From Candidatus Nealsonbacteria bacterium (lineage in GTDB: Bacteria > Patescibacteriota > Minisyncoccia > Minisyncoccales > MHMH01): 64,000 bases of DNA. The notes beneath the pieces were generated by a model, which saw nothing but the letters and a program-made list of their open reading frames with translations, was not told the DNA's origin and searched no databases. The stretch is taken from the NCBI GenBank assembly GCA_016188865.1, contig JACPGX010000001.1, forward strand, positions 141,197-205,196. Reading direction: 5' to 3'. A program made the translations under genes and the position numbers. Numbering within the stretch: the stretch's first letter is position 1; each line of letters begins with the position of its first letter. This document shows positions 12,743 through 54,796 of the stretch, piece after piece.

Positions 12743-13681
12743 TTATTTTATTGTATTTATCAGGTCCTGCTTCTTTGGGGGCTCGGTGCCTTGAACGGTA
12801 ACGGCCAAGGCTGCCCAGATATTGGCGATATTTAAACTCTCTTGAGGATATCTCCTATCTCCACAGCTAAAGGCCGCCAAAAAAGCGTCTCCAGCGCCGC
12901 AAGGGTCAACAACCTTTACTTTATAAGGCACGCTTTCAATATAGCTGCCGTTAAACAGGGCCCTGGCTCCTTTGGCCCCGAGTTTGATGACCACATTAGA
13001 TACGCCTAACTTATCTTTTATTTTATTAATATCAATCTTTGGGTCCACGGCCTTGGCCTCCCTTCTATTCAAAAACATGCAGTCAGCTCCCTTGTAAAGA
13101 TGGTGCTTGCCCGGCTTATAGCCGATCTGAGAATCCACATATAAGGGTTTATGATATTGCTTGCTTAATTTTATCAAGTTATCAATTAAATTCTTGGTTA
13201 AAAGGCCGTGCTGATTATCGGCAACCACCGCTAAATCAGCTTCTTTGATAAGCGGCTTTATGGCATTGATTAATTTTTTCTCAATATCAGAATTAATTTC
13301 CCCGTCGGTCACTTGATTCAGCCAGAGCATTTTCTTCCCATCTGCAAAAATTCTGGATTTTGTGGTCGTTTTGCGGTCTTTATCAACTATAAAAAACTTT
13401 TTTAATTTTGGGCGGACAAAATCATTATAATATTCGGCATTCTTATCTGCTCCCATAACAGAAACAAAGAAAACTTTTGCCCCAAATTCCAGCATATTGG
13501 CTGCCACTAAACTGGCTCCTCCAAATGTCCGGAAAACATCTATTTCTTTAACTTGCGGCACTAGGGGGTAGTCAAGGTCTTTACCGACTTTTCTCCCATA
13601 AATATAAGCATCTATAATGGTGTCGCCTACTAGCAATACTTTTTTGTCTTTAAATGATTTTATGATATCTAATTTATCCAT
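12743..13681 (-). CDS. PfkB-family sugar kinase, RfaE/HldE domain I-like (heptose-7-phosphate kinase candidate)
   Basis: VLLVGDTIIDAYIYG at the N-terminus and DPCGAGDAFLAAF at the C-terminus (PfkB signature). Sits next to the adenylyltransferase gene. Confidence 0.7.
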   Translation of the reverse strand: MDKLDIIKSFKDKKVLLVGDTIIDAYIYGRKVGKDLDYPLVPQVKEIDVFRTFGGASLVAANMLEFGAKVFFVSVMGADKNAEYYNDFVRPKLKKFFIVDKDRKTTTKSRIFADGKKMLWLNQVTDGEINSDIEKKLINAIKPLIKEADLAVVADNQHGLLTKNLIDNLIKLSKQYHKPLYVDSQIGYKPGKHHLYKGADCMFLNRREAKAVDPKIDINKIKDKLGVSNVVIKLGAKGARALFNGSYIESVPYKVKVVDPCGAGDAFLAAFSCGDRRYPQESLNIANIWAALAVTVQGTEPPKKQDLINTIK

Positions 13682-13688
13682 TTATTGT

Positions 13689-14096
13689 TTATTTTTTGCT
13701 TATTTTTTTAATAATATTGGTTGTTGAATAATCTCCCAAATGCGGGCAAAATCTAATCTCAACATCTTCTGGCAATCCATCTATTTTCCTAACTTCTTCC
13801 GGAGTATATCCCTCTGCTCCTTTAACCACAATATTAGGTTTTATTTTCTTGACTATATTTCCGGCTCTCAACTCATCAAAAATCACCACCTCGTCCACAA
13901 AACGCAAAGATTCTAAAAGTGCCTTTCGGTCTTCTTGGCTGTTAATGGGCCGGCCTTCTCCTTTCAGCATCTTAATAGTTTTGTCGGAATTAATGCCCAC
14001 AATCAGCTTATCGCCTAAAGACTTGGCGAATTTTAATACTTCAAGGTGCCCTCGATGCAAAATGTCAAAACATCCGTTAGTAAAAACAACTACCAT
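13689..14096 (-). CDS. Cytidylyltransferase-fold nucleotidyltransferase, RfaE/HldE domain II-like (heptose-1-phosphate adenylyltransferase candidate)
   Basis: VVFTNGCFDILHRGHLEVLKFAK carries the (H/T)xGH motif. 135 aa is the typical size. Confidence 0.8.
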   Translation of the reverse strand: MVVVFTNGCFDILHRGHLEVLKFAKSLGDKLIVGINSDKTIKMLKGEGRPINSQEDRKALLESLRFVDEVVIFDELRAGNIVKKIKPNIVVKGAEGYTPEEVRKIDGLPEDVEIRFCPHLGDYSTTNIIKKISKK

Positions 14097-14347
14097 TTTT
14101 CAAGTATTTTTTTAGCTTTATCTTTAAACTTCTTGTAGGTATAGTACACTTCATTTTCAACATGCGGCGAAACCAATCTTAAAATTTCAGCGCCCCAAAT
14201 GCGATATTGACCTCCGACCTTGTAAGCTTTAATGATTCCTTTTTTCAGCAATCTCTTGGAAGTGCTGTCCGATATCTTCAAAAAATCCCTAGCTTCGGCA
14301 GTCGTATAAATTTGATTTGGTTTTATTTCTTCTTGATTTATGGGCAT
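14090..14347 (-). CDS. Small excisionase-family helix-turn-helix DNA-binding protein
   Basis: YTTAEARDFLKISDSTSKRLLKKGIIKAYKVGGQYRIWGAEI fits the excisionase/MerR-type HTH pattern. It is the first gene after a consensus promoter and overlaps the next gene by 7 nt. Confidence 0.65.
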   Translation of the reverse strand: MPINQEEIKPNQIYTTAEARDFLKISDSTSKRLLKKGIIKAYKVGGQYRIWGAEILRLVSPHVENEVYYTYKKFKDKAKKILEKW

Positions 14348-14364
14348 ATTATAATTCTATTTCC

Positions 14365-14393
14365 ATTGTAGAAAGACCAAGCAAGGGTGTCAA
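14365..14393 (-). promoter_or_regulatory. Sigma-70-type promoter, TTGACA-17-TACAAT
   Basis: The minus strand reads TTGACACCTATTGACACCCTTGCTTGGTCTTTCTACAATGG. The -35 is at 14388-14393 and the -10 at 14365-14370. A duplicate TTGACACC lies 10 nt upstream. The -10 is 17 nt from the ATG of the HTH gene. Confidence 0.6.
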
Positions 14394-14474
14394 TAGGTGT
14401 CAAAACGGTTCAAAAACAAAGAGGCGAGTTATCTTAACCTGCCCCTTAAAGTTTTAAAGTATTTATTTCTACGG

Positions 14475-14692
14475 CTAGTTTCTTTCCGAAAAGTACTTAC
14501 GCACGAGAATGATGTCACAGATAATATTAGCCAGCACATTAGTCGCGATTACCTCGTAGAGGCCGTTCCAAACACCATACAGCGTCCAGATGATACTACC
14601 GTCACCCAGCCGAGTATTTCTCTTAACGGGGGCATAACTATCGCTGCTATTATCAAGACCGCCAGAGCAACAGCAACTATCGCGATGGTCAT
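14475..14692 (-). pseudogene. Possible frameshifted small multi-pass membrane protein gene (PQ-loop/SemiSWEET-like remnant?)
   Basis: Frame A from the ATG at 14692 gives MTIAIVAVALAVLIIAAIVMPPLREILGW... and stops at 14549. A second frame reads ...GSIIWTLYGVWNGLYEVIATNVLANIICDIILVRKYFSERN, stops at 14475-14477 and has no start of its own. Together they look like one gene split by a frameshift. Confidence 0.3.
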
Positions 14693-14781
14693 TCTTGCCG
14701 AGGAAGAAAATACCAATCGAATATCAATTTTCGGTCTCTCAATGGAATACTTTGTCGCTAAAATCGCGATGCAGTTAGACG

Positions 14782-14806
14782 ATGTTAGACGTCCGACGTC
14801 TAACAT
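14782..14806. repeat. 25-bp perfect palindrome (REP-like hairpin), copy 1
   Basis: ATGTTAGACGTC-C-GACGTCTAACAT. It is preceded by a partial direct copy, GTTAGACG, at 14774-14781. Confidence 0.9.
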
Positions 14807-14809
14807 CTA

Positions 14810-15496
14810 TTATTCCAAGAGAAAATCCTTGGTGATTATTTTTTTTGGCTTAAGCTTTGCTGTGCTCGTTTTTATAAATTTATAATAACTATTATTATCA
14901 GAGAATTGATTGAGGATAATGTCTGGTTTTAAAAGTTCACCCCAGCGATTATTTTTGACTAAATCTTGACAGCTTGACCATGGATATTTTTCTTCTTTGT
15001 CTTTCCATGCTTCTAATGCTCTTGGATTACGATGGATATATGCTGAAAGATAGAGAAGTTGTTCATCTGTTTCTACTGGAATGGCCCGGAAAGCGCCCTG
15101 GAAAAGATGACCATGTTTTTTATATTTTGTGTTGAAATATTTTGCGTAGCCAGTTTGTATTCTTTGGAGATAATGTGAGATGCCATTACTGTTATCGGTT
15201 TTTTCTTGGACTAAAAGATGAAAATGATTTGGCATAACGGTAAATATATTCAATTCTACAATTCTTTTATCCGCAATTTGGCGTACAGTCTCCTCGGGTA
15301 TATTGAATTGCGAATACTTAAGAAAATATGAACTTTGACGGCCGATATTATAGAAAGATAACGGAGCTTGATACGCAAAAATAAAAAAGAGAAAACGGCT
15401 GTAATCTCTTTCGTCAATAAATATTGCTGATTCGTCGTTGCTGCGATTACAAATATGGTAATAGTTATTTTGCGCAAATTTAAATTTCCTTATCAT
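14810..15496 (-). CDS. IS200/IS605-family Y1 (HUH) transposase, RAYT-like
   Basis: YYHICNRSNDESAIFIDERDYSRFL, HUH motif in MPNHFHLLV, GHLFQGAFRA, and the Tyr region YIHRNP. The start is moved to the ATG at 15496 (MIRKFKF...). The tracked start at 15535 lies inside the palindrome. Confidence 0.8.
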   Translation of the reverse strand: MIRKFKFAQNNYYHICNRSNDESAIFIDERDYSRFLFFIFAYQAPLSFYNIGRQSSYFLKYSQFNIPEETVRQIADKRIVELNIFTVMPNHFHLLVQEKTDNSNGISHYLQRIQTGYAKYFNTKYKKHGHLFQGAFRAIPVETDEQLLYLSAYIHRNPRALEAWKDKEEKYPWSSCQDLVKNNRWGELLKPDIILNQFSDNNSYYKFIKTSTAKLKPKKIITKDFLLE

Positions 15497-15509
15497 GATT
15501 ATAATATAA

Positions 15510-15536
15510 CATGTTAGACGTCCGACGTCTAACATG
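15510..15536. repeat. 27-bp perfect palindrome (REP-like hairpin), copy 2
   Basis: CATGTTAGACGTC-C-GACGTCTAACATG. Its inner 25 bp are identical to 14782-14806. Confidence 0.9.
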
Positions 15537-15540
15537 TTCT

Positions 15541-16845
15541 CTATCTGGTTTTCCGGGCGCTTTCTTTGTCTAAGTTATACATTTCATCGTACAAATTGCT
15601 TTTGGTGATTTTATAAAAATCCTCCATAGTGCAGTCGGTTTCCATCAGCTCCTCCCCCATTTCATAGCCCCTTGGCAAATGAGCCAAAATAGTAAAGACT
15701 TTATTCAAAACGGCTATCTGTTTTTTCCTTTTTTCCGGAAAATTTAAAACGGAATGACTGAATAAATTATCGGCAATATCGTCGTTGTTGCCGTCATAAT
15801 ATCCTTCCTTGGCGCAAAATTCGCCTATGGGAGTTCCTCGAAGCGGTGAAAAAATTGACGTCCAAGCAACCAGAGGATTTATCTGACAATTCATTTTAAG
15901 CAGATCGAGGTCATCCTGAATGGTCGTAGTAGGAAGGCCCAGCATCTGCTGGGTCCTGAAAGTTATGCCGTATTTTCTTAAAACTTCTATGCCGGCGAAT
16001 ATCTGCTCGTTGGTCATATGCCTATTGAGCAGCTCTTTCCTTATTTTCTCGCTGGCTGATTCTATGGAAAAGGTCACGCTCAAGCAGCCTGCTTCCTTAA
16101 AAAGCTTTATTCTCTCATCGGTAGCAAGCTCTATGCGTATATTGCAGTGGAAAGGAAGGTTAATTTCTCTTTTGTATCTTTCGGTAAACTCTTTCATCCA
16201 TTCCAAATTAACGCCAAACGTATCATCCTCAAAAGCGATTAACTTCAAGGGATACTTCAATAGGGTCTTGCATTCTTTTATGACGGAATCTACCGGCCTC
16301 GGATTATATCTATAATTCGTAAATTCTTTCTGAACGATCGAGTTGTAGCAATAAGTGCACTGATAGGGGCAGCAAAAACCGGTGATGATGTTTTTGATGG
16401 GATTATTTCTCCTTTTTTCATTTTGATAAAACGTTTCCCTGCTCGATATGAATAAATCTTGGGGAGCTATGCTTTCCGAATAAATGCCTCCATCCTTTAT
16501 TTCTCCTTCGACTATTTTAAGCAAAATTCTCTCGCCAAAACCCCTGACTACAAAATCGGCATGCTTTTTGCATTCCTCGGAAAATGAAATGGTATATGGT
16601 CCGCCGATGACTATTTTTGCCTTATTTCTTATCTGGTCGGCTATCTTAAGCATTTGGTTGTGAGAGCCGGCTAAAATGCTGAAGCCCACGAAATCATAAC
16701 TTCCAAAATTAAAATTTTGCCTTTCTAAAGATTGGTAGTCGCTTATATCAACCTGGTGTCCCCTCTGTTGGAGATAATCAGTCAGGACCAAAATGCCCAA
16801 GGGTTCTACGACCGTATAATTATAAATTAATAATATTTTTTTCAT
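15541..16845 (-). CDS. Radical SAM enzyme with cobalamin-binding-type N-terminal domain (class B-like)
   Basis: CxxxCxxC in GFCCPYQCTYCYN. The N-terminal MKKILLIYNYT...FVGFSILAGSH...VIGGPY region is typical of B12-binding radical SAMs. Confidence 0.7.
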   Translation of the reverse strand: MKKILLIYNYTVVEPLGILVLTDYLQQRGHQVDISDYQSLERQNFNFGSYDFVGFSILAGSHNQMLKIADQIRNKAKIVIGGPYTISFSEECKKHADFVVRGFGERILLKIVEGEIKDGGIYSESIAPQDLFISSRETFYQNEKRRNNPIKNIITGFCCPYQCTYCYNSIVQKEFTNYRYNPRPVDSVIKECKTLLKYPLKLIAFEDDTFGVNLEWMKEFTERYKREINLPFHCNIRIELATDERIKLFKEAGCLSVTFSIESASEKIRKELLNRHMTNEQIFAGIEVLRKYGITFRTQQMLGLPTTTIQDDLDLLKMNCQINPLVAWTSIFSPLRGTPIGEFCAKEGYYDGNNDDIADNLFSHSVLNFPEKRKKQIAVLNKVFTILAHLPRGYEMGEELMETDCTMEDFYKITKSNLYDEMYNLDKESARKTR

Positions 16846-16862
16846 CTTTTAACCATAACAAA

Positions 16863-17897
16863 TTATTTTGTTCTGAACAAGACAAAATCTCTAGCGGCAT
16901 TAAAAACATTTTCCGGAGTGATTCCTTGAAGCTGATTAGCCAGCCAGCTCTTGCGAGCGGAATCCATAGCGTCGGTAAATGAATACAAATCGCTATTTTT
17001 TTGGGGTAAAATTATGGAATTTTTACCCGTCGGAGACTGCTCCCTGAAATCAAGGCAGCCGCCAATGTTAATTACGGGCGTCTGCACCGCATTGGCGATA
17101 TAAAGAGGTCCTGTATCTACGCTGATAAATAAGCTTAATTTTTTAAGTAAAGCCGGCAATTCGGAAAGCGCAAAACAACCTGCGGAATTAACGCTGCCGC
17201 CCACCATTAAATCTCGAACCCTTTCAATCGCCGGCTGGTCATTGGAGCCGCCGATAAAAATTATTTTAGCTTCCAGCTCTTTTGTCAATCTGTCGGAAAC
17301 TAAGGCAAATCTGCTATCTCCCCAATTTTTAAATCCGACTCCGGCAGTAACGCTAATGCCCACCAATAAATCCTCACTGCTTAAATTTTGCCTGCCTAAA
17401 AAATCCAAAGCTTTCTTCTCTTCTCTTTCACCCCAAAAAAGCTCTTTCTCGTCAGAACCGTCTTTAACACCGATGAATTTTAATAAATTCAGATAATGGC
17501 CCATAAGCCATGTATGGCTTTTGTATTCCAAACGATAATTATTAAAAACGGAGAGAAGCTGGGTTATTCGCCCGGCTTTCCTATGCGTGGTCGCCACCCT
17601 GCTGGGAATCAAGGACCAAAAAGCAATAATATTATTAAAGGAACCGAGCAATAAATTGAACGCCCAATCATATCTTTCTTCTTTTAATTTTTTAATAAGC
17701 CCGAACCTCGAATAATCGTTAATTATTATTATCTCATCTAAATGCGGATTATATTTCAAAAGATCGTGAGTTTGATGAGTAACTAAGGCTGCAAGATGGG
17801 AATCGGGAAATTTCTTTTTAATTTCCCGAAAAACCGGCGTTGTGCAAACTATGTCCCCTATTTTAGCGGTAGAAATAACCAATATTTTGAGATTCAT
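16863..17897 (-). CDS. Glycosyltransferase family 9 (heptosyltransferase-like)
   Basis: MNLKILVISTAKIGDIVCTTPVFREIKKKFP and ISVDTGPLYIANAVQTPVINI match the GT9 pattern. The start is moved to the ATG at 17897. The tracked 36-aa extension is encoded by a GC-rich hairpin. Confidence 0.7.
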   Translation of the reverse strand: MNLKILVISTAKIGDIVCTTPVFREIKKKFPDSHLAALVTHQTHDLLKYNPHLDEIIIINDYSRFGLIKKLKEERYDWAFNLLLGSFNNIIAFWSLIPSRVATTHRKAGRITQLLSVFNNYRLEYKSHTWLMGHYLNLLKFIGVKDGSDEKELFWGEREEKKALDFLGRQNLSSEDLLVGISVTAGVGFKNWGDSRFALVSDRLTKELEAKIIFIGGSNDQPAIERVRDLMVGGSVNSAGCFALSELPALLKKLSLFISVDTGPLYIANAVQTPVINIGGCLDFREQSPTGKNSIILPQKNSDLYSFTDAMDSARKSWLANQLQGITPENVFNAARDFVLFRTK

Positions 17898-35489: not shown

Positions 35490-36529
35490 TTAAATTCAAA
35501 GATTATTTTATCAATAAAATTGTTTAAATTATGGTTTTTGACAACTATTTCTCTTAGGGCGGGGTCTTCCGCGGCTCCCATTAAATTAAGCATCTTTTGA
35601 GCTAAATCTTTCTCATCTCCTTTTTTGAACATGTACTTTTGAGCCAAAATCTCTCGATATGCCTCATTGCAGGTAAGAACCAGGCAACCCGAAGACATGG
35701 CTTCTAAAACCACCTTATCCAGACTGCCGGTTGAGCTGGGATTAACGAAAAGGTCGGCCCAATTAAAGTATTCCGGCATTTCAGAAAAAGAAACTCCGCC
35801 GGCAAACTCAATATGGCTCTCCAAATTATAATTTTTAACCAAATTTTTCAAATCGGCTAAGTATTCTTCCTGAGATTTTAAAAGCGGCCGGCCGAGGATC
35901 CTCGCCTTTAAATTATTAATGTTCTTTTGATTGACTAAGATATTAACTGCCTCAATTAAAGTTTTGTGGTCTTTCACCGGCACAAGTCGGGCGGCGTACA
36001 GAATTTTGATTACGCGAGGTTTGACCTCCTCGGGGGGTCGAACCTCTTTAATTGGTTTAAAAAATTCCGTATCTATCGCCTGTCCGACTACTTCAATTTT
36101 TTTACTTTTTAACCGGCAGCCGGCAGAAGATGAGGTAACAATAACATTCACTAATTTTTCTGCTAATTTCAGCTTCCAGGGAAGAGCGCCGTGGGCATAC
36201 CATAAAACCAGTTTTTTGCCGAAAAGCTTAGCCAAAGGAAAAGCGGCTATAGCGAAAATAGAACCCATGTGGCAATAAACGCCGTCTGATTCCGGCAGGC
36301 ATTTAAATAGAATTTTCTGCATTCTAAAAAACTGCCTTATTTTGGAATAGCCCTTTTCTTTGCCCAAAGAAAAAACCTCAACGTTTTCCGGCAAATGATG
36401 CTCTCCAACCTGCAACCCTACAACAAAAACTTTTTCCAGTTTTTCTGAAAATTTTTCCAAAATCCTATGAAAAAAACTTAAGTTATCATCGTTAAAATCT
36501 ACTCTTTGAACGATAATTAAGAGTTTCAT
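35486..36529 (-). CDS. Glycosyltransferase, GT4-like
   Basis: GSLDKVVLEAMSSGCLVLT and ILYAARLVPVKD. It carries the 31-nt palindrome at 36016-36046 in its interdomain linker. Confidence 0.75.
   Translation of the reverse strand: MKLLIIVQRVDFNDDNLSFFHRILEKFSEKLEKVFVVGLQVGEHHLPENVEVFSLGKEKGYSKIRQFFRMQKILFKCLPESDGVYCHMGSIFAIAAFPLAKLFGKKLVLWYAHGALPWKLKLAEKLVNVIVTSSSAGCRLKSKKIEVVGQAIDTEFFKPIKEVRPPEEVKPRVIKILYAARLVPVKDHKTLIEAVNILVNQKNINNLKARILGRPLLKSQEEYLADLKNLVKNYNLESHIEFAGGVSFSEMPEYFNWADLFVNPSSTGSLDKVVLEAMSSGCLVLTCNEAYREILAQKYMFKKGDEKDLAQKMLNLMGAAEDPALREIVVKNHNLNNFIDKIIFEFK
36016..36046. repeat. 31-nt palindromic element (type B, degenerate copy) inside a GT4 gene
   Basis: GAGGTTTGACCTCC-TCG-GGGGGTCGAACCTC. 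Translated on the minus strand as EVRPPEEVKP. Confidence 0.75.
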
Positions 36530-36576: not shown

Positions 36577-36597
36577 GGGAGTCCGACTCCCCCCCCC
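36577..36597. repeat. Intergenic GTCCGAC-centred hairpin followed by a C9 tract
   Basis: GGGAGTC-C-GACTCCC (36577-36591) runs into a run of 9 C (36589-36597). It lies between two GT4 genes. Confidence 0.8.
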
Positions 36598-37647: not shown

Positions 37648-37702
37648 ACTTAGGACTTAGGAACTTAGTTTCTAAGTAAACTTAGAAACTAAGTTCCTAA
37701 GT
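37648..37702. repeat. 48-bp perfect palindrome (22-bp arms, 4-nt loop) preceded by an extra ACTTAGG unit
   Basis: ACTTAGGAACTTAGTTTCTAAG-TAAA-CTTAGAAACTAAGTTCCTAAGT at 37655-37702, with an extra ACTTAGG at 37648-37654. It covers the stop codon of 37697-38689. Confidence 0.9.
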
Positions 37703-38689
37703 TCGTTTTAATATCCGTAACGTTTTCTCCACTAAATTATCCCAGCTAAAATCTTTTAATTTCTCTCTAGAATTGCGGATAAATTTTTCCTGCAAACTCT
37801 TGTCGCTCCACAACTTCAAAATAGCTTGCTTTATCTGTTCTTTATTCTTGTATTCTACCAAAAAACCATTAAAATTATCTTCAATTAATTCCGGATTGCC
37901 CCCTTCACTGCTGGCTATCACCGGCACTCCAAAACTCATTGCTTCCAATATGACATGAGACAGACCCTCATAGCCTGAATTTAAAACAAACATATCGGCA
38001 GCCTTAAAGTAAAAAGGCATTTCTTCATGGGGAACTTTTTTATCCTCTCCGACAATTACTAATTTGAAATTTGGATTTTCTTTAAGCAAGTCTGGCATAA
38101 TGGCCCTTAAGTCGTCGAAGCCCTTCCATGGCACAGGACGTCCAACTGATAAAATAATATTTCCGTCAATGCCAATATTTTTTTTGGCATCCTCCTTAGA
38201 AATATCCGGTCGAGAACCGTTCTCGACCGCATTATAAATAACCTCTATTTTGTTCTCCGATACGCGCCAAGAAGCCACCATTTTTTTAACATACCTGCTG
38301 GGAACAATAATTTTATCAGCTCCTCTGGCAACATAAGCCTGAATACTTTTTAAATAATTCTTCTTCTGCTCCCAGGCTGCATCCCCGACAACCTTTAAAA
38401 CAAATTTTTTTCTTAATAATTTTGCCGCCCAGAAAGCCGGCAATCCTGCGCTAGTCGGATTTTGAGCATAAATAACATCAGCCTCTTTTGCCAGCCGAAG
38501 CAAACCCAAGAAATATAAAAAATGCTTTAAACCTTTAGGGTATTTTTTCAATCTTCCTGAATAACTAATAACTGGCTGATTCAATTCTTTGGCCAGCCTT
38601 TTAACATATGTCGCTGGCCCGCCAATGTCAGGCGGATATATGCCGGTGGCTAAGACAATTTTCATATATTTTAAATACCTCTTGGGCAA
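37697..38689 (-). CDS. Glycosyltransferase, GT4-like
   Basis: MKIVLATGIYPPDIGGPATYV and EGLSHVILEAMSFGVPVIASSEGGNPELI. The likely true start is the ATG at 38665. Confidence 0.8.
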   Translation of the reverse strand: MPKRYLKYMKIVLATGIYPPDIGGPATYVKRLAKELNQPVISYSGRLKKYPKGLKHFLYFLGLLRLAKEADVIYAQNPTSAGLPAFWAAKLLRKKFVLKVVGDAAWEQKKNYLKSIQAYVARGADKIIVPSRYVKKMVASWRVSENKIEVIYNAVENGSRPDISKEDAKKNIGIDGNIILSVGRPVPWKGFDDLRAIMPDLLKENPNFKLVIVGEDKKVPHEEMPFYFKAADMFVLNSGYEGLSHVILEAMSFGVPVIASSEGGNPELIEDNFNGFLVEYKNKEQIKQAILKLWSDKSLQEKFIRNSREKLKDFSWDNLVEKTLRILKRT

Positions 38690-39740: not shown

Positions 39741-40828
39741 AGTACATTTTTTATTGATTCCAACATCGTTCTAATATCTTTTTCCGCGTAGTAATTCTGC
39801 AAGGGGAAATTGATGATTCTCTTGGCGACTTCAAAGGTGTTGGGGAATTCTTCCCGGCTTAAAACAATAGGCGTGTGCCAAATGCGGGTGCAGAAAACTC
39901 GGTACCTTCTCAATCCCGCCACAATTTCATCTCTTTTATTTTCCAAATTTTTGGGGACTAAAGCGGAAAGATAACAAAAAACGTTGTTTTCGTGCTCTTG
40001 AACTTCAAAACCTAAATTTTGAAGCTCTTGCTGAAAAAACTTAGCAAGCTTTATCCTGTTTTGCATAGATTTTTCAAAATCTTCCAGAGAATAATAGAAA
40101 AGGGCCAAAGATAACTTATTGAGGCCTGCGGGCTCCGGTAATTTTTCCTTTCTTAGCATCTTCGGAGCGATATCGTTGCCAAACTTTTTAAAAATAAAGG
40201 CGAAAAAAGGAAGGCAATTCAGTAAAGAAATGAAATCCCTGAAATTAAAATTGGTTTTTGGCAGAGAGATTTGCCAATCCTTGGGACAAACTAACAATCC
40301 GCCTCTTAATGCCGGGAATTGCTTGTAAAGACTGAAAAATGCAATATCACTTTTCGGCTTAACCCCGAAAGCATGAGCGCAATCTTCAATAATCGCAATA
40401 TCGGAGGTCCGACCTCCCGACAAATATGACGGGAGGTCGGACCTCAATCCATCAACATCGAACGGGAGACCGTAGGTGTGGCACACTAAAATCGCCTTTG
40501 TCCGGGGAGTAATCTTCCTAAAGATTTCTTCTCTTTTAATATGAAAAGTTTTCAAATCAATATCCAAAAAAATCGGTTTTATATTATATTTCTCTAAAAT
40601 TGGCTGGAATATATCGCAAATATAAGCCGGCATCATTATTTCTGAATTTTGAAGATTCAACTTTCCAATAATAATTTTGAAAGCAGACCGGCCCATGTCG
40701 GTGAAAATAAGCTGTTTACTCGGAAAATATGACTCAAGTTTTTGAGCTAAATTAATCTTCTTGAAATTATTAAGTTTTATTTGCGGGTGGACGAAAAACA
40801 TACTAGTCTTACTCTGGCTAGGCACCAT
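39728..40828 (-). CDS. Divergent DegT-family PLP-dependent aminotransferase carrying an in-frame palindromic element
   Basis: HTYGLPFDVDG, IIEDCAHAFG and FFSLYKQFPALRGG (Lys retained). The residues LRSDLPSYLSGGRTSD are encoded by the repeat at 40403-40445. Confidence 0.65.
   Translation of the reverse strand: MVPSQSKTSMFFVHPQIKLNNFKKINLAQKLESYFPSKQLIFTDMGRSAFKIIIGKLNLQNSEIMMPAYICDIFQPILEKYNIKPIFLDIDLKTFHIKREEIFRKITPRTKAILVCHTYGLPFDVDGLRSDLPSYLSGGRTSDIAIIEDCAHAFGVKPKSDIAFFSLYKQFPALRGGLLVCPKDWQISLPKTNFNFRDFISLLNCLPFFAFIFKKFGNDIAPKMLRKEKLPEPAGLNKLSLALFYYSLEDFEKSMQNRIKLAKFFQQELQNLGFEVQEHENNVFCYLSALVPKNLENKRDEIVAGLRRYRVFCTRIWHTPIVLSREEFPNTFEVAKRIINFPLQNYYAEKDIRTMLESIKNVLCEF
40403..40445. repeat. 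42/43-nt nested double-hairpin element (type A), copy 1, inside a DegT-family gene
   Basis: GGAGGTCCGACCTCC-CGACAAATATGAC-GGGAGGTCGGACCTC. Its reverse complement matches 46914-46955 at 40 of 42 positions. Confidence 0.9.
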
Positions 40829-46570: not shown

Positions 46571-47713
46571 ATGGAAACTGTCAATACCGCAAAACGCAAA
46601 ATACTCTTTCTGGTCACCCAATCTGAAATGGGCGGCGCGCAGAGGTATATTTATGAAGTATCAAAAATACTGTCAGAAAGACACGAGATTTTGGTTGCGG
46701 CCGGAGAGGGAGATGGAGAGTTCTTCCAGAAACTAAAAAATACACCGGTTGAACCGGTGTATCTGAAACATCTGCAAAGAACTCCTGAACCGCATTCAAT
46801 TATCATGGCTATCGTTGAAATAATAAAACTTCTCAAGGCAGAAAGGCCGGATGTTTTGTTTTTGTGTTCTACTACTGCTGGGCTACTCGGCTCCATTGCC
46901 GCCCGAATTTACAGAGGTCCGACCTCTCGTCAGATTTGTCGGGAGGTCGGACCTCGCGTAATCTATCGTATTGGCGGCTGGGCCTTCAACGACCCTCGCC
47001 CATTCTGGAAAAATTGGCTTATCCTGCTGGCGGAGAAATTAACCGCCCGATTTAAAGATATAATCGTAGTGAACTCCGAATATGACCTGCGGATTGCGTT
47101 AGAAAAACGAATCGTTTCTCCGGAAAAAATAGTGAAAATCTATAATGGGCTTGATCGAAATTCTTTGAATTTCTTGCCCAAAGACGAAGCCCGTGGTCTG
47201 TTGACATCCGATGTCAACAGACGAATGATTGGGTGCGTGGCGAATTTTTATAAGACTAAAGGGCTAAAGTGCCTTATTGACGCTTTCGATTTTCTGATGT
47301 CCGGCTTCCCGAAGAAGTCGGACATCAAGCTATTCGTCATCGGCGATGGGAAACTGCGGTCGGAACTTGAAGCTCAAATAAAAAAACTCGACTTAGAAGA
47401 CAGGGTGATTTTAGCCGGCAGAATGCCCGACGCCTATAAATATCTAAAGGCATTTGATGTCTTCGTGCTTCCCTCTCTTAAGGAGGGTTTTCCATGGGTC
47501 ATACTGGAAGCTGCGGTAGCTGACGTTCCGATTGTCGCCACAAAAGTAGGAGCCATACCAGAAATATTGCCGGAAGAATTTTTAGTAAAACCAGGCGATG
47601 CCCAAGCTTTGGCAAAAAAAATTGGCTGGATGCTTGAACATCCAGCCGTACCAAAACTCAAGCAGAACTTCTCTCTGCAAAAAATGGCAGAGGAAACCGA
47701 GAGGCTACTCTAA
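46571..47713 (+). CDS. Glycosyltransferase, GT4-like (only plus-strand gene) carrying in-frame palindromic elements
   Basis: SEMGGAQRYIYEV and EGFPWVILEAAVADVPIVATKVGAIPEIL. RGPTSRQICREVGPRV is encoded by the repeat at 46913-46955. Confidence 0.8.
   Translation: METVNTAKRKILFLVTQSEMGGAQRYIYEVSKILSERHEILVAAGEGDGEFFQKLKNTPVEPVYLKHLQRTPEPHSIIMAIVEIIKLLKAERPDVLFLCSTTAGLLGSIAARIYRGPTSRQICREVGPRVIYRIGGWAFNDPRPFWKNWLILLAEKLTARFKDIIVVNSEYDLRIALEKRIVSPEKIVKIYNGLDRNSLNFLPKDEARGLLTSDVNRRMIGCVANFYKTKGLKCLIDAFDFLMSGFPKKSDIKLFVIGDGKLRSELEAQIKKLDLEDRVILAGRMPDAYKYLKAFDVFVLPSLKEGFPWVILEAAVADVPIVATKVGAIPEILPEEFLVKPGDAQALAKKIGWMLEHPAVPKLKQNFSLQKMAEETERLL
46913..46955. repeat. 42/43-nt nested double-hairpin element (type A), copy 2, inside a GT4 gene
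   Basis: AGAGGTCCGACCTCT-CGTCAGATTTGTC-GGGAGGTCGGACCTC. Confidence 0.9.
47297..47325. repeat. 29-nt imperfect palindrome (type C) inside the plus-strand GT4 gene
   Basis: ATGTCCGGCTTC-CCGAA-GAAGTCGGACAT. Translated as MSGFPKKSDI. Contains GTCGGAC. Confidence 0.55.
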
Positions 47714-47717
47714 TATT

Positions 47718-49247
47718 TTACTTCCCTAAGAGAGAGTTTAATTTTGCGCGGGTGGCGGAACCAATCAGGCCGGTTCCTTTGGTAAGACCCGAGGGAGTTA
47801 GAATATCTGAAGCATACTTTTCCTGAAATTTAATCACAGCAGTTTTAGTCAGAGGACCAAACATGCCGGTATCTAATCCTTCTGATAAAAGTCCCTGACT
47901 AATCAAAATAATCTGTAAATATTTAACTGCACTGCTAGAATGACCCTGCTTAAGAGTGCCGGTAAAAGCAAAGTCAGATGGTACCCCGGCAATACCTTCT
48001 GCGGCAGTTAATTCAGTTAATTGGACCCGCAATTGCTGAACTGCGGCCAATATCTCTATAATTTTGGCCTCCAATTCTGCTTTAGTCATTTGAGAAATTG
48101 GTTTTTCCGCTGGAATGGCCGGCGTTGCGGGAGTCGCAGGAGTTGCAGGAGTTGCTGGAACTGCGGGAGTTACTGGCGTTGCCGGCGTTGCCGGTATCGC
48201 TGGCACTGCTGGAACCGCCGTAGTTGCAGACGCCGGCGCCTCGGTTTTTAAAGTAATGGTGTCGGAAACAGCAGCCGAATTTATTCCGTCAGCGCTGACA
48301 AATTTAGCATAAACTGTTTTTACTTCGTCACCCTCGGTTAATGTCCAAGTTTTGGTTGCTGCATAATTTTCCAAAGAACAATTAAGGAAATCTGAACGGT
48401 TGCAAATAGTCATCAAACTGGCGTCTCCTGCTTTTAAAGCAAGGGTAACTGCCCTGGTATTAACAACGGCAGCTCCCGCATTGATAACCAAAGAATCAGA
48501 ATAGGTGGTTGGCGCTACCCTGTTTACTCCGCCCGCTATAGCGGCTGTGGTAGCGGCTTTGATGGTGGCATAACTTGCGCTTGTCGTGGATAGGTTAGCG
48601 ACAGTGGTAGAAGCCCATAAACTGAAATAGTAAGTATGCTCCTTAGGCAAATTATTAAAAGTTATAAATGCCACAGAAGGAAGATCTCCCCATGAACCGC
48701 TTGAAGTCGCAGTGGGATAATCAGTGCCGTCATTGTATCTAATCGCGGTTTTTATAGATCCGGTGCCTGCTGTCCATATTATTTTTATACTATCTTCCGT
48801 GCTTTTTGACGATAAACTGGTTGGCGTATCTACGCCAGTCAAAAATGTCAGCTCACTGCCATACTTTAAGTCTAGGCTGACTGCGCCATCCCCACTTGCG
48901 GAAGTGGAAGAAGCGGCGTAAGCCCTAAAATAATAGACTGTGCCGGCAGACAAACTGGTGGTTGCATGGCTAAAATTTCCGTCTCCTGAAAAAGCTCCGC
49001 TTTCCGTAGAACTCCCCATGTTGTAATTTCCTGCGCTGGCACTAGCCGTACCTAAATTAAAACCCCTTATATCATATTTTTCGGTGGCTCCGGAGATATC
49101 TATTGTTCCGCTCAAAGTAACTGAAGTAAGGCCGGTTGAGGCAGCATTAGAAGTGACACTAGTGATGGCAGCCAAAGAAACCGCTGGGGAAATTAAAAAA
49201 AACCCCCCGATAAATAATAAAGAAAGTATTAAAAAACTATTCCGCAT
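47718..49247 (-). CDS. Secreted surface protein: FN3-like repeats, Pro/Ala/Thr linker, coiled coil, C-terminal peptidoglycan-binding (PG_binding_1-like) domain
   Basis: Signal/anchor MRNSFLILSLLFIGGFFLISPAVSLA, then PATPATPVTPAVPATPATPATPATPA. The C-terminus GHSSSAVKYLQIILISQG...FGPLTKTAVIKFQEKYA fits the PG-binding repeat pattern. Confidence 0.7.
   Translation of the reverse strand: MRNSFLILSLLFIGGFFLISPAVSLAAITSVTSNAASTGLTSVTLSGTIDISGATEKYDIRGFNLGTASASAGNYNMGSSTESGAFSGDGNFSHATTSLSAGTVYYFRAYAASSTSASGDGAVSLDLKYGSELTFLTGVDTPTSLSSKSTEDSIKIIWTAGTGSIKTAIRYNDGTDYPTATSSGSWGDLPSVAFITFNNLPKEHTYYFSLWASTTVANLSTTSASYATIKAATTAAIAGGVNRVAPTTYSDSLVINAGAAVVNTRAVTLALKAGDASLMTICNRSDFLNCSLENYAATKTWTLTEGDEVKTVYAKFVSADGINSAAVSDTITLKTEAPASATTAVPAVPAIPATPATPVTPAVPATPATPATPATPAIPAEKPISQMTKAELEAKIIEILAAVQQLRVQLTELTAAEGIAGVPSDFAFTGTLKQGHSSSAVKYLQIILISQGLLSEGLDTGMFGPLTKTAVIKFQEKYASDILTPSGLTKGTGLIGSATRAKLNSLLGK
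48110..48240 (-). repeat. Coding low-complexity 9-nt-periodic tract (Pro-Ala-Thr linker)
   Basis: Repeated GGNGTTGCN units on the + strand also generate the spurious antisense GVAGVAG ORF at 48115-48312. Confidence 0.8.
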
Positions 49248-49414: not shown

Positions 49415-50452
49415 TTAAAAACGCGATTCAAGCCAATTGGCAAAAGATTCGAATGCACTGAAAAGACTGGCTTGGGCTGCGGAAATTTGCTGCTGCAAAA
49501 GCTGAATTAATTGCGCAAGCAAATTAATGATTTTTTGCTGGAGTTCTTGAATTAAAGCCCGGAGTTCTTCTGGAGAAAGAGGACCACCGGTGCCGGTGGG
49601 AGCGGGTTCTTCTTCCTTTATTTGTTGAGGTTCGACCTCCTCGGGAGGTCGAACCTCTTCGATTTCGGGCAGTGGCAGAGTTTTAACGTCCGGGAAAACC
49701 GTTAAAGCAGAAACTAAATTTTGCCCTCGGTCGTTAAAAGCTTTTATCTGCCTTCCAGAATATTCCGTATCAGGCCTTAAGCCTGTTTCGTCAAGATAAG
49801 AAATGTTTGCTCCGCCCGAAGCTACCGTATTCAGATTCTCATCTAAAATTTTAAAGCCGAACTCATTATTGGATAAATCCGTAAAATGCCACCTGATTGT
49901 TGAAGTGGATATTGCCTCGCCTGACTTTGCCAAGGGAGAAACAGGAGCAGAAGGAGTGTCGCTTCCTGCCAGAATCATTCTTTCAAGGCCAATAATTTTT
50001 TTGTCAGTGGGACCCTTAAGACTGACGTCAGGAAAAACTGCTGAATTTATTTGTATTTCCGGTTTAATTGTTTTTCCAGTATAGGTAGTAGAAGCGATGT
50101 CTACGGTAATAAAAATCCTTTGCTTTGTAAAAGTTCCATTGAGAGTTGTGTCAAAAAAAGGAGAAAATGATTTCCTCAATTTTTCAGATTCATCGCCGTC
50201 CCAACCCGGCGAAACGCCGTCTTCATAAATTGAAAGCTGGGAAATATCATATTGCTGAACAGTTCCGGTGTTATCAATTTTTATTGAAGTTAAACCGGCG
50301 CCGGGAAGAGTCAAATCTAAAATCAAGAGGTTAGTAGTGCCAGCCGGCACAGCGTAAGTTGACTGCGGGTTGACTATAAAATCATTGGCTGTTGAAGCAA
50401 AAGAAAAACCAGGCGCTAAAACAAAAACTAAAACTAAAATAATTTTCCTCAT
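49415..50452 (-). CDS. Secreted protein with FN3-like domain and C-terminal coiled coil
   Basis: Signal peptide MRKIILVLVFVLAPGFSFAS. STIRWHFTDLSNNEFGFKILDENLN...TEYSGRQIKAFNDRG is FN3-like. The C-terminus is LRALIQELQQKIINLLAQLIQLLQQQI. Confidence 0.6.
   Translation of the reverse strand: MRKIILVLVFVLAPGFSFASTANDFIVNPQSTYAVPAGTTNLLILDLTLPGAGLTSIKIDNTGTVQQYDISQLSIYEDGVSPGWDGDESEKLRKSFSPFFDTTLNGTFTKQRIFITVDIASTTYTGKTIKPEIQINSAVFPDVSLKGPTDKKIIGLERMILAGSDTPSAPVSPLAKSGEAISTSTIRWHFTDLSNNEFGFKILDENLNTVASGGANISYLDETGLRPDTEYSGRQIKAFNDRGQNLVSALTVFPDVKTLPLPEIEEVRPPEEVEPQQIKEEEPAPTGTGGPLSPEELRALIQELQQKIINLLAQLIQLLQQQISAAQASLFSAFESFANWLESRF
49584..49599. repeat. 16-nt palindrome inside the 345-aa secreted protein gene
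   Basis: CCACCGG-TG-CCGGTGG, translated as PTGTGG. It lies 27 nt from the type B element. Confidence 0.6.
49627..49657. repeat. 31-nt perfect palindromic element (type B) inside the 345-aa secreted protein gene
   Basis: GAGGTTCGACCTCC-TCG-GGAGGTCGAACCTC (14-bp arms). Translated as EVRPPEEVEP. Confidence 0.85.
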
Positions 50453-53500: not shown

Positions 53501-54796
53501 AACTGTCTTAGATTGGCTGGCTAAAAGTGCCAATGGGCTGGCTGATAAATCAAAAGTGGCCTGATTTTGAGCGTCCAAAGCAGTTACTGTTGCGCCAATC
53601 TGCGCGCCGGCATACTTCAACTTAATGTTGGAAATGTCGGTGGCGGCAGCTGAACCAGTATGAGTAATAGTAATTGAGTGGACATCAGTAGCTTCAGTTG
53701 AAGAAGCTTCAAAGGTAAAGCCAGCTATTTCCTGATCGACAGATCCTGATAAAATCGTAGCGGCAGCCGGAGAAGTTGAAGTGGCAACAAACAACTCGCC
53801 AACTGAAGTTCCTGCTATTGTTAAGGCTTTTCCGTTTATCGGGAAAACGCCCGTAGGAGCAACAGTGGAAGTAATGTCGCCCGCCGCTTCAATGCCTAAC
53901 TCTAAACCGTCGCCAACTGTGGCAACTCCTTTAGCCGCAATGCTCACTTTCACGGTCAAGTACTTGGTTTCTCCTGCTGGGATTATCCAGCTAAGGCCGG
54001 AAAAAGTGGCTTTGTGCGTGTTGGTGTTTAAAGCTTGCGATGAACCGAGTTGTTTTGCGCCATCATAAAGTTTGATGGCGGAAACATCGGCATCAGTCGA
54101 AACTCCGCCTCGCTTTATAATTATTTTGGAAACCGTGTAATCAGAAGCGCCAGCAGTGAATTGAATCTTAGTAGCAACACTATTGACTGCTCCCAAGGCT
54201 ATTTGTTTAGCCGCAGACGTGTCGGCAGCCAAAGAAACTGAAGCTACAGTTGAAACTGGCGTAGTCGGGGTTGTTGGTGTAGTTGGAGTTGTCGGGGTGG
54301 TTGGAGTTGTTGCTCCTAACATAGAGTTTAATTTAGCTCTTGTTCCCGAACCGACAAAACCAGTGCCCGAAGTTAAACCAATGGGCGTTAAAACATCAGA
54401 AGCGTATTTGTTCTGAAATTTGACAACTGCCGCTTTGGTTAAAGCGCCAAAGAAAGTGGTTTCACTTCCTTTAGAACCTACTCCCGAAGCAGCAATCTGC
54501 GTTGCAGAATCCGAGTTCAAAACAATCTGCAGATATTTCACTGCATTGCCTGAACTGCCCTGCTTCAAGTTGGCTGTAAAGCTGAAATCAGCCGGAACGC
54601 CTGTAATAGCGCCTCCAGCTGCTGGTGTTTCTACAGTAGCTAACTGGGACTGCAAAAGAGCCAATTGAGCCATTAGGGCGTCAATTTGCGTTTGCAATTC
54701 AGCAGCTGTCAAAGCAAAAGCAGAACCCGGAATCATCCAAGCAGCTACAGTCATAGTCGTCACAACCGCAATAATCTTTTTCTTTAAGTTATTCAT
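50519..54796 (-). CDS. Giant (1425 aa) surface protein: N-terminal anchor, coiled coil, PG-binding domain, (TTP)n linker, six tandem Ig-like modules and a distinct C-terminal domain
   Basis: MNNLKKKIIAVVTTMTVAAWMIPGSAFA; AELQTQIDALMAQLALLQSQL; GSSGNAVKYLQIVLNSD...FGALTKAAVVKFQNKYA; TTPTTPTTPTTPTTPTTP. There is a recurring motif of the form D(I/F)SN(I/F)xL(W/Y)DG(T/A)xQ(L/V)G. Confidence 0.75.
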   Translation of the reverse strand: MNNLKKKIIAVVTTMTVAAWMIPGSAFALTAAELQTQIDALMAQLALLQSQLATVETPAAGGAITGVPADFSFTANLKQGSSGNAVKYLQIVLNSDSATQIAASGVGSKGSETTFFGALTKAAVVKFQNKYASDVLTPIGLTSGTGFVGSGTRAKLNSMLGATTPTTPTTPTTPTTPTTPVSTVASVSLAADTSAAKQIALGAVNSVATKIQFTAGASDYTVSKIIIKRGGVSTDADVSAIKLYDGAKQLGSSQALNTNTHKATFSGLSWIIPAGETKYLTVKVSIAAKGVATVGDGLELGIEAAGDITSTVAPTGVFPINGKALTIAGTSVGELFVATSTSPAAATILSGSVDQEIAGFTFEASSTEATDVHSITITHTGSAAATDISNIKLKYAGAQIGATVTALDAQNQATFDLSASPLALLASQSKTVYAYADIAPGIWTNRTVIFEITQFNDVTAYGANSGGQIEASHNDTQAYQKSTGNTMTIGQGSLTVNVDAAYNPAAQNYVKGTSNRLISAFKFTAGSREGVRLVKLRLKLSNGSGSATDISNITLWDGTTQVGGPVSLIGSYATFGSNTIGWDDPGIIDIAKSSNKTLQVKADVPSGATTNNTLDLDIDTYSDIWIDGLESKYDITQSTTNIVLTSGNGNLHTVTASGALTLALSANTPAAQTIIKGASGIEMMRINLTADSGEDMLVSSLEVNLNSGDAASSPTNAASGDYTNVKLLKLDGTQLGSTVPSPTTNASFSFNLTVPASETITLKVVADIPSNTALSTGSVQVTNATKITTQGSASTATITETATSVYGKTMTFGQGALTVSAAANPGDQNIIIGSDAVPVVGLVFTAGSAEDVRITRIKLTGSQGGGTPSATEFQADFSNFALYDGATRLTSVKGWDSTSATTVTFSASDFLNAQGITITKGAQKTITVKSDFLSTGNASDIVAIGIASSSDLASGMSGLNGTRDVTFTGLSSNTTPTTTITGVHGTANFATSTESSLSYITLQSSGTLAITSAADTPDSTIVTVGPTGSIKQDVVFTKVNFTAAREDISVQSIVIERKFGTGTTTADSDFVNVSLWDGTTQLGTDQVLVNYGLANSSTTFNFSAGSFWVVPKDTTKVLTIKADLYGVKSADQAGATTGDTPALCYATSTVKGVSSGVVINPSGTTDAGKLCGNWQLIHKSKPTIAASSLPSTTFSAGEKTLYRWTVTAGPEGAIGWVKVIFDVSGSVQIGSDTYTIGAGGATTTFGIYMGTTTTPGDSGSFNAVAKLLISSSTLKVYDVATGDQILGTTTDVQTDAGVSVYNYYAGGARVAFVAKTEQVVSAGATKTYELRGDILYGGKAGDSISTKIAKRATATSTVNFFTAASFATSTDMASPNAHNYVTSTAPTFVWSDQSGSGATHNYVSTDWSNEYKIATFPTATLSLSK
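51400..54250 (-). repeat. Six divergent tandem protein modules (~110-140 aa each) inside the 1425-aa gene
   Basis: Module anchors: VSAIKLYDGAKQLGS, DISNIKLKYAGAQIGA, DISNITLWDGTTQVGG, YTNVKLLKLDGTQLGS, FSNFALYDGATRLTS, FVNVSLWDGTTQLGT. Each is preceded by an FTA(G/x)S..E motif and followed by a KT(L/I)xVKAD motif. Boundaries are approximate. Confidence 0.6.
54255..54312 (-). repeat. Coding 9-nt tandem repeat encoding (Thr-Thr-Pro)6
   Basis: GGNGTNGTN units on the + strand are translated on the minus strand as TTPTTPTTPTTPTTPTTP. Confidence 0.8.

Follow-up and report, generated by a model that had tools for sequence, protein, structure and literature searches.

A probable REPtron-like unit, a Y1 enzyme gene between two cognate palindromes, and its possible relation to intragenic repeats in a Candidatus Nealsonbacteria genome

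This study concerns a 64-kb stretch of DNA from Candidatus Nealsonbacteria bacterium (contig JACPGX010000001.1 of assembly GCA_016188865.1; the whole stretch, with a G+C content of 40%, is hereafter the window) and, within it, a gene for a Y1 HUH protein that lies between two palindromes. The protein resembles the REP-associated tyrosine transposases (RAYT or TnpA_REP; REP, repetitive extragenic palindrome), and we refer to the gene together with its palindromes as the Y1 unit. The unit occupies the junction between a radical SAM (rSAM) gene and the remnant of a PQ-loop transporter gene, and the window contains no other Y1 gene. The unit comprises the following features:

15508-15538: upstream palindrome, perfect over 31 nt with a 13-bp stem, AACATGTTAGACG-TCCGA-CGTCTAACATGTT; core at 15511-15535
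15503-15531, minus strand: promoter-like site, with the -35 element TAGACG in the left arm of the palindrome, a 17-nt spacer and a TG-extended -10 element, TATATT
14810-15496, minus strand: RAYT/TnpA_REP-like Y1 HUH gene, an intact open reading frame (ORF) of 228 aa that starts with MIRKFKF at 15496
14781-14807: downstream palindrome, perfect over 27 nt, GATGTTAGACG-TCCGA-CGTCTAACATC; core at 14782-14806
14774-14781: third half-site, GTTAGACG, immediately beyond the downstream palindrome

The preliminary description of this DNA reported identical palindromes on both sides of the transposase gene. Indeed, the two flanks contain identical 25-nt perfect palindromes, ATGTTAGACG-TCCGA-CGTCTAACAT, at 14782-14806 and 15511-15535, which extend to 27 nt downstream and 31 nt upstream of the gene. 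When folded as single-stranded DNA (ssDNA), the downstream palindrome reaches -11.5 kcal/mol (z -6.2) and the upstream one -14 kcal/mol (z -8.6), values unmatched by any shuffled sequence. The upstream hairpin is identical at 25 of 25 nt in L009, a syntenic locus of a related lineage, although the RAYT orthologues differ by a dS of 1.1. The TCCGA centre in the window gives a CCG triloop with a T-A closing pair. Given that the hairpin is perfect, its “orientation” comes down to the identity of the central base only, and the central base of the flanking hairpins flips between the window and L009. As for the third half-site, which was not included in the preliminary description, 23 of 183 hairpins at other loci are followed by a similar GTCTA(A)C half-site at a distance of 0-15 nt (mostly, 5-8 nt), where 1.6% would be expected.

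The -10 element of the promoter-like site stops 6 nt short of the ATG, and the order hairpin, TGnTAWWAT, 6-13 nt, ATG recurs at homologous loci. This layout suggests that the Y1 transcript would be leaderless or nearly so, and that the palindrome could serve as an operator over the Y1 promoter, that is, that the gene might be autoregulated. The same palindrome, right behind the rSAM stop codon, may have a further role in terminating or stabilising the rSAM transcript. A scan of positions 13500-17000 against Rfam matched no family. A longer ORF of 241 aa, starting from an ATG within the hairpin, was considered and rejected as an artefact because a stop codon interrupts the corresponding frame in L009; furthermore, all homologues begin with M(I)RK.

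The Y1 protein matches the Pfam family Y1_Tnp (PF01797) with 39.6 bits, above the cutoff of 23, with the HUH motif NHFHLLV and the catalytic tyrosine within YIHRNP. An alignment of 24 sequences bears out these motifs, which had been recognized at the outset: H91, H93 and Y153 are invariant across the homologues, and a YPWSS..NRWGELL block is conserved at the C-terminus. The top NCBIfam match is REP_Tyr_transpos (NF047646; 45.2 bits, E 8.6e-12), compared to 14.6 bits for the IS200 model (NF033573), which is under the cutoff of 55. In the AlphaFold model of the protein (mean pLDDT 67), the core is good, and the best Foldseek match of this model, with a TM of 0.61, is 4ER8, the E. coli TnpA_REP in complex with a REP hairpin, narrowly above structures of the IS200 family. 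The Foldseek and profile searches also matched the IS200/IS605 TnpA structures 2XM3 and 2VJU, and a search of the PDB with the protein as a single sequence returned only noise. The dN/dS ratio between the window gene and its L009 orthologue is 0.07 at a dS of 1.1 and, by this measure, the Y1 gene is under strong purifying selection. Taken together, the NCBIfam scores, the top fold match and the dN/dS ratio favor the original assignment of the protein as a RAYT-type enzyme. There are about 1,858 homologues, nearly all of them labelled Patescibacteria or without a name, and a protein with 100% identity is recorded on a 271-kb contig of a Candidatus Nealsonbacteria metagenome-assembled genome (MAG).

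Homologues with 47-84% identity to the Y1 protein occupy unrelated contexts, such as rpoC/ftsK, rpsT and greA/lysS, in addition to the neighbourhood of the same rSAM gene. Among 13 distinct full-length homologues, perfect GTTAGACG-type hairpins flank the gene on both sides in ten; for the remaining three, there is a single hairpin or an imperfect one. The stem of the family hairpin is (T)GTTAGACG / CGTCTAAC(A) or, equivalently, (A)TGTTAGACG / CGTCTAACA(T), and the spacing is conserved as well, with 14-22 nt between the hairpin and the ATG, and 5-40 nt between the stop codon and the second hairpin. The central pentamer differs between genomes (TCCGA, TCTGG/CCAGA, CTGAG, CTAAG, CCGAG and others). 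Because the stem is constant while the pentamer varies, the stem is the signature of the family and the GTCCGAC heptamer is not, so that the preliminary description of GTCCGAC as the core of the palindromes is not supported in that form. No conserved unpaired target or guide motif, and no GT[AG]G tag, was identified 5' of the upstream hairpin stem at 10 loci. Paralogues that share a genome have 65-80% identity to the query, and each of them keeps to one fixed context across samples; no identical copies of the Y1 unit were found among the homologues compared.

Scanning one genome per species for exact GTTAGACG-N5-CGTCTAAC yielded many matches in Patescibacteria. One MAG, H14-bin043_1, contains about 20 hairpins of the GTTAGACG type and at least three diverged Y1 paralogues flanked by hairpins, each with its own centre class; at least 12 of its hairpins are solitary, and 11 of these belong to the TCTGG/CCAGA and CTAAG classes, both of which are used by its paralogues. 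Solitary hairpins were detected also in Nealsonbacteria MHMH01, Wildermuthbacteria MHTR01 and CAZVFV01. The centre is specific to the genome, namely, CCGGG in CAZVFV01, TCSGA in MHMH01, CAZWNE01 and JAQBTT01, and TTCAA in JAUSJT01. The solitary copies are mostly located a few nt from gene ends, and some lie in frame within long genes, where they are always translated as V-R-R-x-T-S-N:

L015:1220, L016:977 and L041:434: in-frame hairpin GTTAGACG-N5-CGTCTAAC in MurC
L057:5098 and L121:821: in-frame hairpin in an IleRS-like protein (one of 1139 aa)
L044:2535: in-frame hairpin in XseA
L052:5552: in-frame hairpin in a histidine kinase

In MurC, the hairpin occupies the same residue position in two lineages, with the centre TCCGA or TCTGG matching the respective genome. 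This combination of the same position with each genome's own centre points to homogenisation within genomes.

The history of the copy in the window can be traced through its neighbours, which are as follows:

15541-16845, minus strand: B12-binding rSAM gene, the upstream neighbour of the Y1 unit
14478-14776, minus strand: PQ-loop gene remnant, with matches (tblastn, blastn) to residues 73-132 and 167-206 encoded by the complete gene of L009
14365-14393, minus strand: sigma-70 promoter close to consensus (TTGACA-17-TACAAT), preceding the HTH_17 gene (14090-14347)

The upstream palindrome comes within 2-5 nt of the rSAM stop codon (15541-15543). In this respect, the initial placement of the unit exactly at an operon boundary was accurate; however, the consensus promoter that was thought to adjoin the unit on the other side serves the HTH gene and is located about 390 nt from the left palindrome, with the PQ-loop remnant in between. 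The PQ-loop transporter gene is intact in L009 and L217 and is a pseudogene in the window, where about 310 nt are missing flush with the downstream palindrome, and the first ~72 codons along with the upstream region are gone. At the far end of this deletion, as judged from L009, there is no convincing microhomology or second CGTCTAAC site. Locus L009 is syntenic with the window, in the order rSAM, hairpin, RAYT, hairpin, PQ-loop. In L217, which represents a third lineage with an 85% identical rSAM gene, only 12 nt separate rSAM from PQ-loop, and neither a RAYT gene nor a hairpin is present, that is, the site is cleanly empty; the rSAM orthologues in L216 and L218 also have no RAYT unit behind them. 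From these comparisons of sequences, the Y1 unit is an old, discrete insertion at the operon junction, or else has been cleanly lost where it is missing, and selection has kept it since. It probably entered the rSAM/PQ-loop junction in a lineage ancestral to both the window and L009, and purifying selection has retained it thereafter.

We consider it likely that the Y1 unit is a REPtron-like system, i.e., a single-copy RAYT/TnpA_REP-like Y1 enzyme that belongs to a Patescibacteria-wide clade and is encoded between two cognate palindromes. By analogy with TnpA_REP and with the IS200/IS605 enzymes, the Y1 protein would bind the hairpin extruded on ssDNA, the catalytic tyrosine would cleave near the hairpin, and the ends would then be rejoined; by this route, hairpins would be maintained and, occasionally, copied. 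Features that mark RAYT genes are found here, namely, palindromic REP-like sequences on both sides of the gene, and a low-copy gene that is inherited vertically and selected much like a housekeeping gene, as indicated by the single Y1 gene in the window, the synteny with L009 and the dN/dS of 0.07, with the caveat that the Y1 site is empty in L217.

Known REPtrons include E. coli YafM (PDB 4ER8) and those of group 3 in Stenotrophomonas maltophilia and Marinomonas; the palindromes of group 3 are short and perfect, with 3-nt loops (PMC8266576, PMC6006769, PMC3116915). The Y1 unit shares with REPtrons a Y1 HUH enzyme with a post-core extension that includes a conserved Ser (here, in YPWSS), bracketing palindromes that are also dispersed (here, in related genomes) with one class per paralogue, and the combination of low copy number, vertical persistence and purifying selection. 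With group 3 in particular, it shares the perfect palindrome and an effective loop of 3 nt. It differs from REPtrons in the lack of a 5' GT[AG]G tag, in a stem that stays conserved among proteins as little as about 50% identical, with a genome-dependent centre, in a 228-aa protein with an insertion after beta-1 and a score under the NCBIfam RAYT cutoff, and in a patescibacterial host with a low observed density of hairpins. Repeat-specific REPtrons and in-frame intragenic REPs have been described previously (PMC6006769, PMC3733652), and the dispersal seen in relatives of the window organism appears to follow the repeat-specific REPtron pattern, albeit without the GT[AG]G tag and in a different phylum. 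We found no description of REP/RAYT systems for Patescibacteria (the candidate phyla radiation, CPR) in full-text searches of the literature. The TIRYT genes, or TIRtrons, are RAYT-like genes between inverted repeats that are not of the GTAG type (PMC3733652), and the Y1 unit is similar to these in having a RAYT-like gene, flanking repeats without the GTAG tag, and moderately abundant families. Unlike in TIRtrons, each flank of the Y1 unit is a self-complementary, perfect palindrome rather than one of a pair of terminal inverted repeats, and there is no GGGGWSAS motif.

The possible reach of the enzyme beyond its own flanks has to be assessed against the other palindromes in the window. The heptamer GTCCGAC/GTCGGAC occurs 10 times, compared to 1.54 expected, and 10 occurrences were reached in none of 100 shuffles. 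Eight of these 10 sites lie in palindromes, the exceptions being 36082 and 62917; thus, of the original statement that there were at least eight heptamers, all palindromic, the number and the enrichment stand and the “all” does not. The pentamers TCCGA/TCGGA occur 108 times in total, at expectation (61 vs 64 and 47 vs 56, respectively), and TCSGA forms the centre of stems of at least 4 bp nine times vs 0.4 expected. The possibility that TCSGA is a restriction-avoided or generally favoured word was rejected given its normal overall frequency; only its palindromic use is unusual. Apart from the flanks of the Y1 gene, TCCGA is the centre of the following palindromes, of which the last two were not included in the preliminary description:

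36577-36591: intergenic hairpin GGGAG-TCCGA-CTCCC, weak (-4.7 kcal/mol, z -2.2)
47196-47222: perfect palindrome GTCTGTTGACA-TCCGA-TGTCAACAGAC with an 11-bp stem, in frame in a GT4 glycosyltransferase (GT) gene, translated LLTSDVNRR
56536-56548: palindrome with a 4-bp stem

A distinct set of repeats, denoted types A, B and C, is located within genes:

40404-40445: type A doublet, GAGGTCCGACCTC-N16-GAGGTCGGACCTC, in frame in a DegT-like gene, translated LRSDLPSYLSGGRTS
46914-46955: second type A doublet, in frame in the GT4 gene (46571-47713) in another reading frame, translated RGPTSRQICREVGPR
36016-36046: type B doublet, GAGGTTTGACCTC-CTCGG-GGGGTCGAACCTC, in frame in a GT gene, translated EVRPPEEVKPR
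49627-49657: second type B doublet, in frame in an unrelated 345-aa protein, translated EVRPPEEVEPQ
47297-47329: type C imperfect palindrome, GATGTCCGGCTTC-CCGAA-GAAGTCGGACATC, with the heptamer in the arm

Types A and B represent one family of arms, GAGGT-YYG-ACCTC, which is found in frame in unrelated proteins; the centre of type B is TTYGA (TTCGA or TTTGA). In ssDNA, type A favours a single 16-bp hairpin (-23.4 and -19.3 kcal/mol for the two copies), where the two arms pair with each other, GTCCGAC with GTCGGAC, rather than a pair of small hairpins centred on GTCCGAC. The heptamer, previously thought to form the hairpin centre at all these sites, is in the centre at 36577, but resides in the arm of type C and is buried in the stem of the long hairpin of type A.

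The GT4 gene contains three palindromes (46914-46955, 47196-47222 and 47297-47329), each in a loop whose length is hypervariable across 22 orthologues. At these three indel hotspots, the orthologues variously lack an insert or contain a single arm, a doublet or an unrelated insert; at the type A site, there is a single arm in L093 and L095, and a doublet in the window and L094. An analogous case is that of IleRS, where the orthologues at L057:3409-3439 and L121:2483-2530 have distinct GAGG-arm doublets, resembling type B or type A, in one and the same position, flanked by FG and IAGDF, and these are read in different frames, as EVRPPQEVGPRV in L057 and RSDLPSDLSGGRTSTV in L121. This finding implies that insertion or turnover has occurred repeatedly at a single IleRS loop. 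Types A and B have the form of REPINs, with inverted arms, a short spacer, a long fold, and singlets coexisting with doublets. Their arms (GAGG-TCSGA-CCTC), however, differ from the RAYT flank (GTTAGACG-TCCGA-CGTCTAAC), with only the central 7 nt in common, so the arms of these doublets are not the REP that flanks the RAYT gene.

Short palindromes in frame within genes are known as Rickettsia palindromic elements (RPE) and intragenic REPs (PMC3733652), and in-frame REPs occur also in tnpA_REP genes of subclass 2.4 (PMC6006769). The repeats described here are similar in that they are short palindromic singlets or doublets that lie in frame in loops of proteins that are conserved otherwise, including tRNA synthetases, and vary among orthologues. 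They differ in comprising at least two stem families, GTTAGACG (VRRxTSN) and GAGG-N5-CCTC (RGPTS, EVxPP, RSDL), in their occurrence in very small CPR genomes, and in the presence of several inserts in the same loop in different frames, as in IleRS of L057 and L121.

It was proposed at first that this RAYT, or its relatives, seeded the repeats inside genes of the glycan island. The heptamer could, however, quite conceivably be incidental. Types A, B and C, along with the other intragenic palindromes, would then have arisen separately, as palindromes inserted in frame in the manner of Rickettsia RPEs or intragenic REPs, with some other process behind their spread or maintenance, and the palindromes of the RAYT would have a local role only, as terminator and operator. 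Since GTCCGAC by itself forms a 3+1+3 palindrome, sharing it amounts to two inner base pairs and one central base. The window also contains families of palindromes with other centres (GAGAAC-N-GTTCTC and the CTWAG doublet at 37655-37702), the GT4 hotspots accommodate many unrelated inserts in the orthologues, and the GAGG...CCTC arms of relatives have the centres TCAAA, TGGAA and CCCGA. Both RAYT palindromes, in turn, are found at terminator-like or promoter-like positions. What speaks against a fortuitous heptamer is that TCSGA palindromic centres are enriched and co-occur on contigs with TCCGA-class RAYT hairpins, and that the TCCGA centre recurs beside distant RAYT paralogues.

The RAYT as the source of the type A and B repeats is possible, on observations that are suggestive, but somewhat doubtful. 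In this interpretation, types A and B and the other TCSGA-centred palindromes would be mobilised, too, by this RAYT or by a paralogue encoded elsewhere in the genome, with the enzyme reading the centre and tolerating any stem; we hold this to be conceivable rather than probable, and it would extend the REPtron interpretation without excluding it. In addition to the nine TCSGA-centred stems in the window, RAYT-type hairpins across other genomes have a centre in common with further palindromes on their own genome or contig 18 times, compared to 5.7 under permutation, with none of 5000 permutations reaching 18. In a second data set, the signal is weak (17 vs 8.8, p 0.019). TCCGA-centred hairpins other than those of the RAYT are about 6-fold denser in TCCGA-class loci than elsewhere (9 per 191 kb vs 9 per 1105 kb), and GAGG-TCSGA-CCTC arms are present in four of 36 TCCGA-class loci vs none of 167 others, although these four loci are probably close kin of the window organism, and shared ancestry may explain the association. 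In H14-bin043_1, a GAGG-CTWAG-CCTC doublet is paired with a CTAAG-class RAYT hairpin. Distant Y1 paralogues of 225-234 aa (about 32% identity; L070:2757-3533 and L111:9523-10322) are flanked by GTGCAAA-TCCGA-TTTGCAC and GTAGGACA-TCCGA-TGTCCTAC, that is, their stems are GTGCAAA or GTAGGACA, the latter containing the canonical GTAG. There is also a precedent for recognition via the loop, given that group-3 TnpA_REP requires the loop bases and tolerates changes in the stem (PMC8266576).

Several observations speak against such mobilisation. The stems of types A and B are unrelated to the conserved stem of the Y1 family, type A prefers the single long hairpin with the heptamer hidden in the stem, and the centres of type B are TTCGA or TTTGA rather than TCCGA. 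Furthermore, the GAGGTCCGACCTC arm is present, alone or in a doublet, at the orthologous GT4 site in L095 and L094. In the contig of L095 and L216, no RAYT and no RAYT-type hairpin was found in the 42 kb examined, including the syntenic rSAM junction; this is the site without a RAYT on the same 206-kb contig where L095 carries its arm, GAGG-CCCGA-CCTC. The arm is ancestral at the GT4 site in these relatives, whose syntenic island is without a RAYT.

A broader and, in our view, unlikely proposition is that a CPR clade of ~230-aa Y1 enzymes recognises the hairpin centre, a triloop of the T-CSG-A type, and neither a GTAG tag nor the stem sequence. If this were the case, one enzyme could maintain and spread palindromes with unrelated stems, in-frame insertions would remodel surface loops of the essential proteins MurC and IleRS and of the glycan-island enzymes, and the genome-specific centre would be a co-evolving specificity code.

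Other repeats in the window deserve mention in their own right. The doublet at 37655-37702 is intergenic and consists of a perfect 23-nt inverted pair, ACTTAGGAACTTAGTTTCTAAGT / ACTTAGAAACTAAGTTCCTAAGT, with seven CTTAG/CTAAG words within ~60 nt; doublets much like it, AAAAGAAGCTTAGCTTCTCACTTAGAAGCTAAGCTTCTAAGT, occur at least four times in H14-bin043_1 (L026, L049, L051 and L062), and this looks like a second REPIN-like family common to CPR genomes. The palindrome GAGAAC-N-GTTCTC is found five times with at most one mismatch (38212, 42093, 42120, 56371 and 56685; 0.1 expected), with some copies inside longer palindromes, for example, CGGTCGAGAACCGTTCTCGACCG at 38207-38229, and is present in the syntenic loci L094 and L095 as well; it could function as an operator or represent a further family of repeats. 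CTCAG (8 vs 28 expected) and CTGAG (12 vs 36 expected; maximal-order Markov model, whole window) are strongly depleted and CTAAG and CTTAG are at normal levels, which may reflect avoidance of a CTSAG restriction site. Finally, a 9-nt tandem array of about 11 GTTGCnGGA-like units spans 48101-48231, within a 509-aa ORF (47718-49247), where it would encode a short tripeptide repeat; such an array is noted also at 54256-54296.

With regard to the Y1 unit as a whole, several points weigh against the REPtron interpretation. The protein scores below the curated RAYT cutoff of NF047646 (45 vs 80 bits), its AlphaFold model is moderate overall and poor in the C-terminal third, and a profile search of the PDB places ISDra2 TnpA slightly over 4ER8, with both matches weak and non-discriminating. 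The GT[AG]G tag that marks canonical REPs is missing from the hairpins, and the 64-kb window contains no solitary cognate hairpins, dispersal being seen in related genomes only. In addition, an element moving in one piece would also account for the presence/absence polymorphism and for the range of contexts in which the whole unit is found. Such an element would be an autonomous IS200-like insertion sequence (IS), moving as hairpin-gene-hairpin, with the solitary hairpins as scars or as derivatives akin to miniature inverted-repeat transposable elements (MITE-like). The unit resembles IS608, ISDra2 and IS200 in the HUH/Tyr core and fold, in subterminal hairpins on both sides and in the polymorphism of the insertion site and, because it is absent at the L217 junction, an IS-like past stays plausible; the ~310-nt deletion that abuts one end, the fixed distances between the hairpins and the gene across unrelated contexts, the several paralogues within one genome, and the lack of the unit in L216 and L218 are in line with this possibility. 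IS200 TnpA proteins are about 130-150 aa long. The Y1 protein is about 80 aa longer, there is no tnpB, and the ends are identical, perfect palindromes instead of the distinct, imperfect left end (LE) and right end (RE) hairpins of IS200/IS605. When the lack of identical copies at multiple sites, the divergence of within-genome paralogues that keep a single context each, the synteny of an orthologue at a dS of 1.1 with a dN/dS of 0.07, the low score of the IS200 model and the lack of a conserved target sequence 5' of the left hairpin are considered as well, an autonomous insertion sequence is an improbable explanation for the unit as it exists now.

REP/RAYT systems are known mainly from Proteobacteria and a few other phyla, and there is an ongoing debate on whether RAYTs are domesticated transposases or long-lived replicators within the genome. 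The streamlined genomes of Patescibacteria, with a conserved REPtron-like clade that numbers about 1,900 proteins, would present such a system in a very different genomic setting. The combination of a clade-wide stem with a genome-specific centre would be a natural specificity code, accessible to in vitro assays on short oligonucleotides. The in-frame copies found within MurC and IleRS, together with the glycosyltransferase hotspots, suggest that variation in protein loops routinely originates from palindromic repeats in these organisms. Should the enzyme also act on the intragenic repeats, a domesticated transposase would be tied to the diversification of cell-surface glycan enzymes in these bacteria.

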